DNA from: Verrucomicrobiota bacterium
GTDB lineage: Bacteria > Verrucomicrobiota > Verrucomicrobiia > Verrucomicrobiales > DEV007
Assembly (NCBI GenBank): GCA_020630975.1
Contig: JAHDID010000006.1
Coordinates: forward strand, 91,182-155,181
Direction: 5' to 3'
DNA: 64,000 nucleotides
The position numbers were made by a program, and so were the translations under genes. Each line of letters opens with the position of its first letter. Position 1 is the first letter of the stretch. A model generated the notes under the pieces. That model was not told where the DNA came from. It worked only from the letters and a program-made list of their open reading frames with translations, and ran no database searches. This document shows positions 21,386-28,669 of this stretch, in pieces.

Positions 21386-22840
21386 CTATTCCGCCTGGCT
21401 CACTTCGGGGAATGGCGAGATCAACTCTAGCCCACTGGGCACGCTATCTGGCACCCAATGATCCAGCTCAGTCGCGCTAGGGCTAGTGAGCGCATGGAGA
21501 AAGGCGACCAACTGATCGACCTGTTTGTCGGTCAGGTAGCGCGGCATCTTCAGCTCCATCGGCATGGTCGACTTCACGTCTTTGATGGTCCGGCGATCAT
21601 TGTGCACCGCTCCACGGAATTCCGGCTCGAGTTGATCGACATCATAGTTCTCCAGTGAGTGCACAGGATTCAAGTGATGGCGCACCGCATCCTCCAGACT
21701 ATCGTAGCATCCATTGTGCATGTATGGGGCCGTCAGTGCCACATTGCGCAGCGGTGGTGTGCGGAAGTGGTATTTGAGGTCCAGTCCTGCATTGCTACGG
21801 TGTGCGACGCCGTAGTCCGCATCCTCCTCCATATCTGGGCCTGGGCCGATCGGCACAATGCCGATGTTGTGCATTTTCTGGTCGGTCATCAGTCGACCAC
21901 CATGACAGTCGGAGCACTTGGCTTTGCCGTAAAATAGATGGGCCCCCGCCAACTGAGCGTCCGTCAAAGCCTCATCATCGCCCGCCAGAAATTGATCCCA
22001 AGGGCTATCTCGCAGTGTGAATGCAGTGGTCTCAAACGCCGCTATGGCATTGCCCACCGCTGAGAACTTGATCTCTTCCAGCGACTTATCTGGGAAGGCT
22101 TTGGAGAAAAGCTCGCGGTAACCCTCGATGCCCATCAGACGTTCCATCAGTGTTTCCCAGATCTGGTGCTCGTTGTGGCCGAGGATCTGGCCCACCTCAT
22201 TGTGCCCACCCGTGGCACCCTGTTGCCCCTTGGTACCGCGCATCTCATCGCTGGATAGCACTGGCACCATAGCCTGAGCCGCTAGCAGCCCATCCACCTC
22301 CTCGGGCATACGCACCTGGTATAGCCCCTCAGACTGGGTGAGCCGCATCGAATTGAGCGCGAATTTCCCCGGCTCATACTCATGCACACGCCCATCCCAG
22401 AACATATTTTTCCAAGCCGAATCACCTCGGTTGAAGATCTCTGGAGAATTGCGCGGGGTGAAGGGGTGCGCCGCTCGATTGAGGTCAAACCCCACCAGCA
22501 CCGGCTCTCGCCCCTGGACCTCCATCAGCCGTAGTCCCTCCGGCATACGCTTGCCGGCAGCGCTATCCACATACGCCTTTGTGCCGACCGCACGCGAGCG
22601 TCCATCGGCCGTGGCAGTGCTGGGGTGGTGACACGTCGCACAGGAGACATCCTGATTGCCCCCTAGCACAGGATCGAAAAACAACGCCTGCCCCAGCTTT
22701 ACCTGCGCCTCAGGAAACTCCCGAGGTGCCTCCAGAGGCGTCACAGCGTGCTCCACCAATAGCTCTCGCAGCGATGCCGCGTCCTCAGCGCTAGCTATAC
22801 GACTCAAACAAACCAGTGCGATCAGGGTCCAGTGCCTCAT
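21386..22840 (-). CDS. Di-heme cytochrome c peroxidase / MauG family protein
   Basis: Signal peptide; LGQALFFDP..G...SCATCHH, CSDCHGG, FRTPPLRNV.LT.PYMHNG. Start moved to ATG 22840. Confidence 0.9.
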   Translation of the reverse strand: MRHWTLIALVCLSRIASAEDAASLRELLVEHAVTPLEAPREFPEAQVKLGQALFFDPVLGGNQDVSCATCHHPSTATADGRSRAVGTKAYVDSAAGKRMPEGLRLMEVQGREPVLVGFDLNRAAHPFTPRNSPEIFNRGDSAWKNMFWDGRVHEYEPGKFALNSMRLTQSEGLYQVRMPEEVDGLLAAQAMVPVLSSDEMRGTKGQQGATGGHNEVGQILGHNEHQIWETLMERLMGIEGYRELFSKAFPDKSLEEIKFSAVGNAIAAFETTAFTLRDSPWDQFLAGDDEALTDAQLAGAHLFYGKAKCSDCHGGRLMTDQKMHNIGIVPIGPGPDMEEDADYGVAHRSNAGLDLKYHFRTPPLRNVALTAPYMHNGCYDSLEDAVRHHLNPVHSLENYDVDQLEPEFRGAVHNDRRTIKDVKSTMPMELKMPRYLTDKQVDQLVAFLHALTSPSATELDHWVPDSVPSGLELISPFPEVSQAE

Positions 22841-22877
22841 TTCAATAGGGTACAAAAATTATTCAATAGGGTACAAT
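22840..22877 (-). repeat. Dispersed 21-bp-period repeat, locus 2 (2 copies)
   Basis: TTCAATAGGGTACAA starts at 22841 and 22862 (reverse complement of the consensus). Confidence 0.9.
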
Positions 22878-25581: not shown

Positions 25582-25653
25582 ATTGATAGGAATTTGCTTT
25601 TTAAAGGGCGATCTGATGTGGAGCCGTCGGTCCGGTGGGGTGGATGGGGTTAA
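25582..25653 (+). repeat. Direct repeat A (72 bp), left of the selenoprotein-type gene
   Basis: 61 of 72 aligned positions identical to 26657-26726 (hand alignment, one 2-nt indel). Confidence 0.85.
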
Positions 25654-25946
25654 TTTCGCGAGACGAAAGAATCGTTTCTTGAACAAGGGTGCATGCCATT
25701 CCCGTTGATGATGCCTGCGCCAGAATCTCTTGGACGAATCAACTTTTTACGATAGTCTGTTTGCTTATGAGGGTTTTTTACTTTTGCCTATTGACGCTTG
25801 CTGCGTCTATGTCTGTCTCATAGGCCGGTATCGATATCCCGCGTTCGGTGTTCACCATGGATGAGTTGGATGAAGCAAAGGCTAAGGCGGCCAAGGACGA
25901 GGAGCCACTAATCTTTGTCTACACCGACCCTTCAACTAACTGAGGA

Positions 25947-25980
25947 CCTTGCATAGCTGCCAGTTCGGCAGCCTTCAAGG
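25947..25980 (+). promoter_or_regulatory. Bacterial SECIS-like hairpin
   Basis: Lower stem CCTTG(25947-51)/CAAGG(25976-80); upper stem GCTGCC(25956-61)/GGCAGC(25967-72); apical loop AGTTC with G at position 2 followed by T; loop begins 18 nt after the TGA. Confidence 0.78.
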
Positions 25981-26038
25981 AGTTTCGCAGTCGGGGTGTC
26001 GTGGTATTCGCTAGTACCCAGTCGGATCGGAGCAAGTT

Positions 26039-26045
26039 CCCAAAG
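26039..26045 (+). other. Candidate -1 frameshift heptamer C_CCA_AAG
   Basis: X_XXY_YYZ phased to the upstream codons TTC CCA AAG; zero-frame TAG follows at 26049; the -1 frame is the 26057..26428 ORF. Confidence 0.45.
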
Positions 26046-26656
26046 GGGTAGAAGATGTGCGCAGCCAATCCGGACAATATATCCCCAAAGTTTTCGTGAC
26101 CACGGCTGATGGTTCTAAAGGGATCGAAGCGATCACCTATGAAAAGCTTAAGGCCGATGCTAGAGGTGCCGCTAGGGAGTTGCGAAAGAAGCTGGAAGAG
26201 GTCGAGAATATTTTGGGAGAAGAAGCTGAGGAAGAGGTCGAAGAGCCAACTCTATTAGCTGAGACCCAGGAATGGACAAACTCTGAGGGGACCAAGATCA
26301 CAGCGGCGATAAAGAAAATAGACGGCAGCAATGTGATTTTTTTGATCAACAACCAGGAGGTTCCCTATCAGGTTTCGAAATTATCCGAGGCTAGTCAGAG
26401 GCAGATTAAAGAGCTTCTCAATCGATAAGGGTAATGCTCTTTTGGGTTTTGAGCCCCCCCTGTAACAAGTCAAAGGGCTCAATCGCTTTAGCGATGAACG
26501 AAAGACTGGTGCGAGGAAGATGCGCGGGGCTAACTGGGGCAATCTTCATGTTCTAACAGACCTTCAAGCCTTATGAGGCCTCTAGCCGGCCAACAGTAAA
26601 AGGCATCCCTCGAAATTGACTGTGTTCAAATTCTGCCGCTCCCGCATTAGCGTATT

Positions 26657-26726
26657 ATTGATAGGAGTTTGCTTATTCAAGGGCGATCTGCTTGAGGCGT
26701 CGGTCCGCTGGGTTGGATGGAGTTAA
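26657..26726 (+). repeat. Direct repeat B (70 bp), right of the selenoprotein-type gene
   Basis: Partner of 25582-25653. Confidence 0.85.
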
Positions 26727-26986
26727 GGTGACCGTTAGGGAACGTAACCCGGGTAGTCAAATTGCGGCCAAGAAGCGGCTCTACCCTCGCGGAAAATCTA
26801 TAGGTAAATATAGCGAAAATCATTCCTTTGCCTGGCCAGAGAATCACATTGTTATTTTCGATATCACCCCACCTAACCCCAACGGACGGGAGGAATGATA
26901 AATCCGTCCTGCCTTTTACGCGGAAATATAAAAACGGCAGAATCCGGACCGCCCTAAGATATGGTTGTCAAACTTTTCTGATCTCT

Positions 26987-28669
26987 ATGAATTGCATTCT
27001 CCTTCAGACACTTTCGACACGGTCTCTCCAGATCGTTGCTGCGATCTTTCTTTCGCTGTCAGCTTCCGCCGCCGACCGGCCAAACATTCTGTTCATCGTT
27101 TCCGACGATCATGGCTGGGGTGATTTGCCGTCGAATTGGGACGAGACCGAAGTGCAGATGCCGACTCTCGATAGACTGGCTGCCGGTGGGGTGCGGTTTA
27201 CCAACTACCACACAGTCCCGCTCTGCGCACCGTCTCGCGCCTGTATGTTCACCGGCCAAAACTCATCCGAAAACGGTATGTGGCGGGGGCCGGGAGGCGT
27301 TCCCGGCGAGCATGGTTACAAAGGCATTAAACGAAATGTCACCATGCTGTCGGAGCACCTTTCGAAGGCTGGTTACCAAACCGGGGGATTCGGCAAATGG
27401 CACATGGGCTCGATCGAAGGCGAAGCGCCCAATGACCGGGGTTTCGATGAATATCGCGGCTTCATGAGTGGGACTCATGGGTATTGGGTTACCGAAAAAC
27501 GGTCAAAGATTCTGCATAATGGAAAACCGGATGATGCCACCGGTCACACCACCGAGTTATTCACCGAATGGGCTGAGCAATTCATTCGCCAGAGCGCCGA
27601 CGATGAAGAACCGTTTTTCTGTTACCTCGGTTACAACGCAGTGCACGGTCCGATCCGGACTGACGAATCGAAACCTGCTTCCGCACCGGAAGAGTGGGTG
27701 AACAAAGCCCTTGACCGGGGTGTCAGTTTTTTGCGCAGCGACTATGTCGCCATTCTCGAACACATGGATCACCACATCGGTCAGCTGATCGACCTACTGG
27801 ATGAACTGGAGATCGCCGAGAATACGCTGGTCGTCTTTGTCAGTGATAACGGTGGCTGCGTGATGGAGGGTGATGCACCGGGTGGCAGATACCCCGCCAA
27901 CAACGGACCACTGCGCGGCAGTAAGGCATCGACCTGGCAGGGCGGTCTGAATGTCCCGTTCCTTATGCATTGGAAAGGCCACATTCCCAAAGGTACCGTC
28001 TCCAGCGCACAAGTGATGCACGCAGACATCTTTGCGACCCTGCTGGACGCAGCCTCAATTCCGGTTCCGAAGATGAATGGAAATAATCCCGTGCGCGGAT
28101 TGTCGCTGATGCCACACATGCTTTCGGCCGGTAAACAATCAATCCCTGCGCGCACCATGATCTTCGATCTATGGGGAAATATCGGACTGCGGAAAGGCAA
28201 CTACAAACTCTGGGCCGATGCCGGGCGAGACGCGACTCCGGATTGGCAAGCGCTCATCGCTGATATCAAAGCCACAGATCTGGCACTCTACGATCTCAGT
28301 CAGGATGTTGGAGAGGAGAACGATCTTCGAACCAAAAAACCGGAACTCTACACTTCGCTCAAGGCTGAACTGATCGACTACTTCTCCGGGATCGACGATG
28401 AGTATCCCATTCCGGAAACTATAGGGGAAGCCGAAAAGAAAAGCCCGCCCGCAAAGCCGAAGACCGAAGCGCCCAAGTCAAAATCACGGTCAATCAATCC
28501 CGAGAAGTTCCTCAAGTCCCGCGACAAGGATGGCGATGGAGCGCTGTCCCTGATAGAGTATACCCAGAAACCGATAGAGGCAGCACCCGCTCGAACCAAA
28601 ATTTTTCAGGGCCTTGATACCGACAGCAATGGCAAGCTAACGCTGGAGGAACTGAAGAAATCTCTATAA
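26987..28669 (+). CDS. Exported formylglycine-dependent sulfatase (S1) with C-terminal EF-hand pair
   Basis: RPNILFIVSDDHGWGD, CAPSR, GKWHMG; DKDGDGALSLIEY and DTDSNGKLTLEEL loops. Start moved to ATG 26987. Confidence 0.92.
   Translation: MNCILLQTLSTRSLQIVAAIFLSLSASAADRPNILFIVSDDHGWGDLPSNWDETEVQMPTLDRLAAGGVRFTNYHTVPLCAPSRACMFTGQNSSENGMWRGPGGVPGEHGYKGIKRNVTMLSEHLSKAGYQTGGFGKWHMGSIEGEAPNDRGFDEYRGFMSGTHGYWVTEKRSKILHNGKPDDATGHTTELFTEWAEQFIRQSADDEEPFFCYLGYNAVHGPIRTDESKPASAPEEWVNKALDRGVSFLRSDYVAILEHMDHHIGQLIDLLDELEIAENTLVVFVSDNGGCVMEGDAPGGRYPANNGPLRGSKASTWQGGLNVPFLMHWKGHIPKGTVSSAQVMHADIFATLLDAASIPVPKMNGNNPVRGLSLMPHMLSAGKQSIPARTMIFDLWGNIGLRKGNYKLWADAGRDATPDWQALIADIKATDLALYDLSQDVGEENDLRTKKPELYTSLKAELIDYFSGIDDEYPIPETIGEAEKKSPPAKPKTEAPKSKSRSINPEKFLKSRDKDGDGALSLIEYTQKPIEAAPARTKIFQGLDTDSNGKLTLEELKKSL

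Follow-up and report, generated by a model that had tools for sequence, protein, structure and literature searches.

Bacterial selenoproteins that carry a U-x-x-C motif on a thioredoxin fold include thioredoxins (PF00085), thiol:disulfide interchange proteins (PF13098), and DsbA-like, DsbG-like, thiol-disulfide isomerase-like and redoxin proteins (PMC13188914, Table 1). The family to which the locus described here belongs resembles them in its thioredoxin fold, with selenocysteine (Sec) as the first residue of U-x-x-C at the N-terminus of helix 1, in the existence of Cys homologues and in a SECIS hairpin located directly past the UGA codon, and several of the known families are also exported. 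It differs from them in matching none of their Pfam or NCBIfam models, in the addition of a C-terminal SHD1-like domain, and in having orthologues that were recovered only from marine Verrucomicrobiales, while the copy found in the DNA analysed here is broken. Thioredoxin_7-type proteins (PF13899), such as ERp19 (1sen), AGR2/AGR3 and a disulfide isomerase of Xylella (3fk8), are secreted or ER-lumenal single-domain oxidoreductases which are among the best structural matches to the family and provide its sole, weak Pfam match, but they make use of Cys, and by sequence the family remains under the Pfam threshold. The C-terminal domain is modelled as a small SH3-like barrel with a helix, as in the SHD1 domain of yeast Sla1 (PF03983; 2hbp). 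Unlike the latter it is bacterial and extracytoplasmic, and it does not match PF03983 at E <= 1. The hairpin is comparable to the fdhF-type SECIS of Escherichia coli in that it starts ~11-12 nt past the UGA, presents G-U in the apical loop and has an unpaired or mismatched upper-stem position in most orthologues, whereas its loop comprises five bases (AGUUC/AGUUU) rather than the GGUC of fdhF, and its SelB site is a predicted one.

The window, a stretch of 64,000 nucleotides, derives from a draft genome of 7.14 Mb in 158 contigs (95.8% complete). With translation table 11, a 123-aa ORF (GTG 26057 to TAA 26428) is the only one recognized at the locus, as the earlier note had observed in reporting that the ORF track was limited to the last 123 aa. 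That note proposed a single hidden selenoprotein gene at 25767-26428 with an N-terminal signal peptide. The frame starting at ATG 25767 does begin with a signal-peptide-like sequence (MRVFYFCLLTLAASMSVS), but a TAG at codon 19 (25821-25823) cuts this signal peptide. Past this codon, and with the TGA taken as Sec, the frame reads AGIDIPRSVFTMDELDEAKAKAAKDEEPLIFVYTDPSTN-U(25941-25943)-GPCIAASSAAFKEFRSRGVVVFASTQSDRSKFPKG before it is closed by a second TAG (26049-26051). The TGA is directly preceded by EEPLIFVYTDPSTN and directly followed by GPC, and the positions that had been given for the TGA, for GPC and for the AGTTC hairpin loop 18 nt after the TGA are exact. The region is nevertheless not one gene as proposed, as it contains two in-frame TAG codons and its 123-aa C-terminal part lies in the -1 frame relative to that of ATG 25767. 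The -1 frame is closed on its upstream side by a stop at 26012-26014, and as such the change of frame must occur somewhere in 26015-26048, within TTC CCA AAG GGG TAG; beyond this site the -1 frame reads CCC AAA GGG GTA GAA. The second half of the thioredoxin fold contains a cis-Pro motif (YIPKVFVTTADG). A scan of the locus for promoters and terminators returned none above chance. The features of the locus are summarized in Table 1.

Table 1. Features of the selenoprotein-type locus, in window coordinates, with the basis of each assignment.
Feature	Coordinates	Strand	Basis
Signal-peptide coding remnant (MRVFYFCLLTLAASMSVS), with in-frame TAG 25821-25823 at its end	25767..25823	+	Alignment with intact orthologues
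N-terminal half of the thioredoxin-fold domain in the ATG 25767 frame, including the U-G-P-C active site	25824..26048	+	Colinear with orthologues
TGA, selenocysteine codon of the family, first position of U-x-x-C	25941..25943	+	Column conservation; Cys in distant homologues
SECIS-type hairpin	25947..25980	+	Pairing and covariation
Frameshift site: C_CCA_AAG heptamer and G run, followed by zero-frame TAG 26049-51	26039..26051	+	Orthologue alignment
C-terminal half: rest of the thioredoxin fold, acidic linker and SHD1-like SH3-fold domain	26048..26428	+	Alignment, model
~72-nt repeat, upstream copy (ATTGATAGGAATTTGCTT...GGATGGGGTTAA)	25582..25654	+	86% identical to the 26657-26726 copy
~72-nt repeat, downstream copy, upstream of the sulfatase gene	26657..26726	+	Repeat comparison

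When 101 genomes from the same GTDB family were searched in six frames, 11 full-length matches (48-60% identity) were obtained, each in a single frame with exactly one TGA, while a scan of all GTDB species genomes identified 26 loci, all of which belong to marine Verrucomicrobiales (Rubritalea, Roseibacillus, Oceaniferula and Akkermansiaceae MAGs). Twenty-four of the 26 loci encode a signal peptide and a single TGA at the aligned column (U-G/A/R-P/S/T-C) and are otherwise uninterrupted; these comprise 23 complete proteins of 210-237 aa and one shortened by a contig end. The 25th orthologue has lost its N-terminus at a contig end, with its TGA still visible. A single TGA at this column within one open frame is thus present in 25/25 orthologues, and a signal peptide in 24/24 with a complete N-terminus. 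A profile search against 1.84 billion representative sequences furthermore recovered 1107 matches, many of which are full-length with C-x-x-C in the place of Sec (e.g. P0013, P0018, P0023 and P0050), the variants at this column including TSCGLC (P0013), TECHHC, TDCPLC and SSCPKC, among others. Redox-dead forms also occur in this set, as does a single Trp form, the full-length homologue P0039 (S-T-W-G-L-C). The Trp codon TGG is one base removed from TGA, and the Trp of P0039 may therefore represent a fixed Sec codon. The closest homologues in the public protein databases include C-terminal fragments of 120-169 aa, the products of genes cut at the UGA, as had been anticipated for standard gene callers. 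Homologues that end at the TGA position, residues other than Cys in this place and an unconserved hairpin had been named in the earlier note as outcomes contrary to its proposal; all were looked for, and the comparison returned instead the TGA in every orthologue, CxxC in the distant homologues and a conserved hairpin. Taken together, the comparison strongly supports a genuine Sec-dependent selenoprotein family of marine Verrucomicrobia, which is secreted, thioredoxin-like and thus far unannotated. A text search for the family in the table of a 2026 selenoproteome review, in deep-Sep and in BSepDB found no trace of it.

The machinery for Sec insertion, the presence of which had been put forward as a check, was located in full. 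SelA (411 bits) and SelD (301 bits) are encoded in the genome with scores above the curated cut-offs, as is SelB (272.6 bits for its best stretch; 296.5 bits with its neighbours in frame), together with a tRNA-Sec (58.6 bits; anticodon tca in ARAGORN). Among the open frames of 300 codons or more, 1225 are closed by TAG, 1002 by TAA and 753 by TGA, making TAG the commonest stop in the genome and TGA the stop of 25% of long open frames. TGA is therefore an ordinary stop elsewhere in this genome, and a global reassignment of TGA to Trp, or of TAG, is ruled out by this usage.

The SECIS-type hairpin is composed of a lower stem (CCTTG 25947-51 / CAAGG 25976-80), an upper stem (GCTGCC 25956-61 / GGCAGC 25967-72) and an apical loop, AGTTC (AGUUC; 25962-66), which starts exactly 18 nt past the TGA. 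Folded alone, the window sequence exceeds chance by a modest margin only (-18.3 kcal/mol; z -1.37; 19/200 shuffles equally good), so that the case for the hairpin is made by the comparison of orthologues. Across 23 distinct orthologous sequences, with the upper helix taken as window positions 25955-61 with 25967-73, the upper helix is 85% paired and the lower helix is weaker at 71%. Overall, 79% of the cells are paired and 17 cells are changed on both sides, with compensatory changes at four pairs of the upper helix. One covarying pair joins the third bases of two codons, an Ala codon and the one that lies five further along, and in the 20 sequences in which it is paired it occurs as C-G (11), U-A (7), A-U (1) and G-U (1). 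The loop AGUU is invariant among the orthologues, despite lying in Ser codons that are free to vary. Neither the observed pairing nor the observed covariation score was reached in any of 500 shuffles, and controls slid along the alignment were 19-49% paired. Hairpins at an equal distance, with G-U in the loop, are also found in four paralogues in the same genome. The fold proposed earlier is consequently unremarkable in the window alone but well borne out by covariation. No matching model for the hairpin RNA was found in Rfam.

The AlphaFold2 model of the closest intact orthologue (L065; mean pLDDT 88) comprises, in order, a signal helix, a thioredoxin fold (beta-alpha-beta-alpha-beta-beta-alpha), a disordered acidic linker and a five-stranded barrel with a helix. 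Helix 60-75 has Sec 59 (U59) at its N-terminus, and an I-P loop (106-107) is placed just before strand 108-112. Foldseek matched the first domain to thioredoxins and Thioredoxin_7-type isomerases (E 1.7e-4 and higher), and the last domain to the SHD1 domain of Sla1 (2hbp; TM 0.70 by target length; rmsd 1.4 A; probability 1.00; 23% identity over 53 columns). At the level of sequence, the best Pfam match is Thioredoxin_7 (E 0.027, in 3/9 members), below the threshold for a thioredoxin-family HMM, and none of the NCBIfam selenoprotein models, which cover families such as SaoT (NF040730), HUIPC (NF047660), VPGUxxT (NF041383) and GOS_C (NF045500), matched any of 20 orthologues at E <= 0.1. The family is outside every Pfam and NCBIfam model. 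The descriptions "consensus SECIS" and "SHD1-like" that had been applied to the locus are upheld by covariation and structure, but neither has a curated counterpart in Pfam, NCBIfam or Rfam. Judged by its fold and motif, the intact protein is most likely an extracytoplasmic selenol/thiol-disulfide oxidoreductase, in which the SHD1-like module would most likely serve as a putative binder of a partner or substrate. The exported Sec-dependent redoxin with an SHD1-like module that had been proposed is thus well founded at the level of the family, given the TGA in 25/25 orthologues, the CxxC homologues, the covariation and the folds, but does not hold for the broken copy in the window.

This copy is colinear with its orthologues (48-59% identity), without gaps in the N-terminal half, and has kept 33/33 columns that are invariant among 20 intact orthologues. 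It carries two lesions, both of which are absent from the orthologues (0/25 carry either). The orthologues have Q (CAG), K (AAG) or L (TTG) at the codon aligned with the TAG (25821-25823), close to where the signal peptide is cleaved, and the TAG is one base removed from each of these codons. At the point where the frame changes, the orthologues read (F/L)-P-(K/A)-G-(V/A) in a single frame, and one base is missing from the CCC-AAA-GGGG run (26039-26048) of the window. We suggest, with a probability of roughly 0.7 and on the strength of these sequence comparisons, that the window copy is a recently inactivated pseudogene of a real selenoprotein gene. The intact gene would have encoded a protein of ~220 aa, in which a Sec-type signal peptide precedes the thioredoxin-fold domain and an acidic linker leads from there to the C-terminal SHD1-like SH3-fold domain, and the UGA of its Sec-Gly-Pro-Cys motif would have been read by SelB and tRNA-Sec, guided by the hairpin 12 nt downstream. 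A point change may then have created the TAG at codon 19, through which translation from the native start would end inside the signal peptide, while the loss of one base from the CCC-AAA-GGGG run would have shifted the 127 terminal codons, which begin with GTA 26048, into the -1 frame. All of the invariant residues are still present, as are the SECIS hairpin and the Sec codon, suggesting that the inactivation was recent. Relatives with more than ~60% identity to the window copy were not found among the same-family genomes, the GTDB species genomes and the protein databases, while a metagenome scan gave a single match (48%); synonymous sites are saturated at 50-60% protein identity. With no relative closer than ~60%, the lesions are not datable.

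The invariant residues, the perfect SECIS and the in-phase heptamer would also, however, be expected of a functional recoded gene. In such a gene, translation would start past the first TAG at ATG 25858 (Met 30), insert Sec at UGA 25941 and shift by -1 at C_CCA_AAG, two events on one mRNA ~100 nt apart, to produce the full thioredoxin-SHD1 protein without its signal peptide, a cytoplasmic version of a normally secreted selenoprotein. The heptamer C_CCA_AAG (26039-26045) is situated right at the frame junction and is correctly phased as X_XXY_YYZ; a GGAG precedes it by 6 nt (26029-32), the zero-frame TAG comes just after it, and a tandem -1 slip would yield the orthologue-like ...FPKGVEDVR... 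at the right length. An in-phase X_XXY_YYZ ending in A_AAG, an upstream GGAG and a zero-frame stop are also characteristic of programmed -1 sites, such as those of dnaX (A_AAA_AAG) and the IS3-family transposases. Unlike these, the window site lacks a stimulator and conservation among orthologues, follows an upstream nonsense codon and resembles a homopolymer deletion. No stimulatory structure of the kind expected 5-9 nt downstream is apparent, with positions 26020-26120 reaching -18 kcal/mol where shuffled sequences average -23.7 (z +1.9), worse than shuffles over the 60-80 nt beyond the site, and 0/25 orthologues shift, the codons at this place in the latter not being slippery. One-base deletions typically arise in homopolymer runs, and the overlap of the deletion site with a slippery run is therefore not independent evidence. 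Furthermore, the TAG removes a signal peptide that is otherwise universal among the complete orthologues, no later export signal replaces it, and Met 30 is a conserved internal residue rather than a start. Double recoding is thus poorly supported and we consider it improbable.

It is likewise improbable that the organism has an intact gene and that both lesions reflect minority alleles or errors of sequencing or assembly. Such a reading would fit a draft genome in 158 contigs, an indel within homopolymer runs and a gene that is otherwise undegraded. However, two independent single-run assemblies (SRR14415274 and SRR14415273), found by an exact look-up of the 123-aa ORF and possibly sharing a sample series with the window genome, match the window at every one of their 4079 and 3415 aligned bases, respectively, both lesions included, and a substitution that creates a TAG is atypical of homopolymer error. 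The flanking genes are also long, intact, densely packed and free of frameshifts, which indicates that the assembly is not generally error-ridden and, with the two identical assemblies, makes an assembly error unlikely. Also improbable is the view that the 123-aa ORF functions alone, as a stand-alone SHD1 protein with half a thioredoxin fold: the frame is open from its GTG, and SHD1-like modules occur in many other proteins of the genome, but the product would begin halfway through the thioredoxin fold and lack a signal peptide, and its GTG is the first in-frame start past the frameshift and not a domain border. That the TGA is a plain stop between two or three unrelated small ORFs, or is read as Trp, would agree with the ends assigned by gene callers and databases and with the Trp of P0039, yet it appears very improbable in view of the one-frame conservation across the TGA in 25 genomes, the prevalence of Cys over Trp at this column in homologues, the covariation of the SECIS, the presence of the Sec machinery and the frequency with which TGA closes long open frames in this genome.

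Additional paralogues of the family can be observed. One of these (G000:C31:101825-102442; locus L023, from position 1387) has the same signal peptide, thioredoxin fold and SHD1 architecture, with two active-site Sec codons (U-G-N-U). A second open frame in L023 (from ~2326; G000 C31, ~102.6 kb) codes for two heavy-metal-associated-like repeats with the motif GMK-U-G-x-x-C, in which a TGA replaces the first Cys of the GMxCxxC metal-binding motif, and a hairpin is found ~22 nt downstream of each TGA. A U-R-P-C paralogue without the SHD1 domain (G000 C40:159655-160020) has a hairpin identical to that of the window, while a U-G-S-C paralogue (G000 C79:171051-171392) is part of a 336-aa open frame and a U-G-A-C paralogue (G000 C137:46803-46988) represents a short form. 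A redox-dead paralogue (G000 C116:18744-19385; P0063) has neither Cys nor Sec at the site. Tandem U-H-A-C paralogues with a second in-frame TGA adjoin the orthologue in two genomes (G070:C1:2039918-2040346 and G098:C6:31380-31814), and a paralogue of the same U-H-A-C kind is present at G047:C5:190559-190984 (L045), with no adjoining orthologue among the loci listed.

The putative pseudogene is bracketed by a ~72-nt repeat (ATTGATAGGAATTTGCTTTTTCAAGGGCGATCTGCTTGAGCCGTCGGTCCGGTGGGTTGGATGGGGTTAA), of which approximately eight copies exist in the genome, all intergenic and with 80-92% identity. The other copies are located in G000 C120 (508, 1485 and 2181), C141 (2697-2773, minus strand), C115 (4499) and C25 (35913). 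The repeat has no Rfam match and contains GGAAT-N15-CGAT, resembling an ECF-sigma promoter, and the genes downstream of its copies are mutually unrelated. In the window, the downstream gene (26828-28669) encodes a sulfatase (PF00884; E 1.7e-58) with an EF-hand-like calcium-binding motif at its end (residues 591-611), and its true start is likely the ATG giving MNCILLQTL..., ~260 nt past the repeat. Another extracytoplasmic redox enzyme, a di-haem cytochrome c peroxidase (CCP_MauG; E 1.9e-38), is encoded 3 kb upstream of the locus (21386-22855, minus strand). By synteny, the window neighbours, namely a 545-aa and a 223-aa protein of unknown family and the sulfatase, are absent within 3 kb of every orthologue.

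The family described here extends the bacterial selenoproteome by an uncurated selenoprotein, which is secreted and combines a thioredoxin fold with an SHD1-like module. The Sec-containing members of this family, as retrieved from the public protein databases, are C-terminal fragments cut at the UGA. The locus also calls for caution, in that a conserved Sec codon and a perfect SECIS do not prove a gene to be intact, and read-through of the TGA alone would have led to a false "hidden gene" annotation here. Should double recoding prove true, the locus would represent an early stage of a gene that has newly come to depend on frameshifting. Several selenoprotein paralogues of this kind occur in marine Verrucomicrobiales, and the locus illustrates the turnover of these paralogues through gain and loss.
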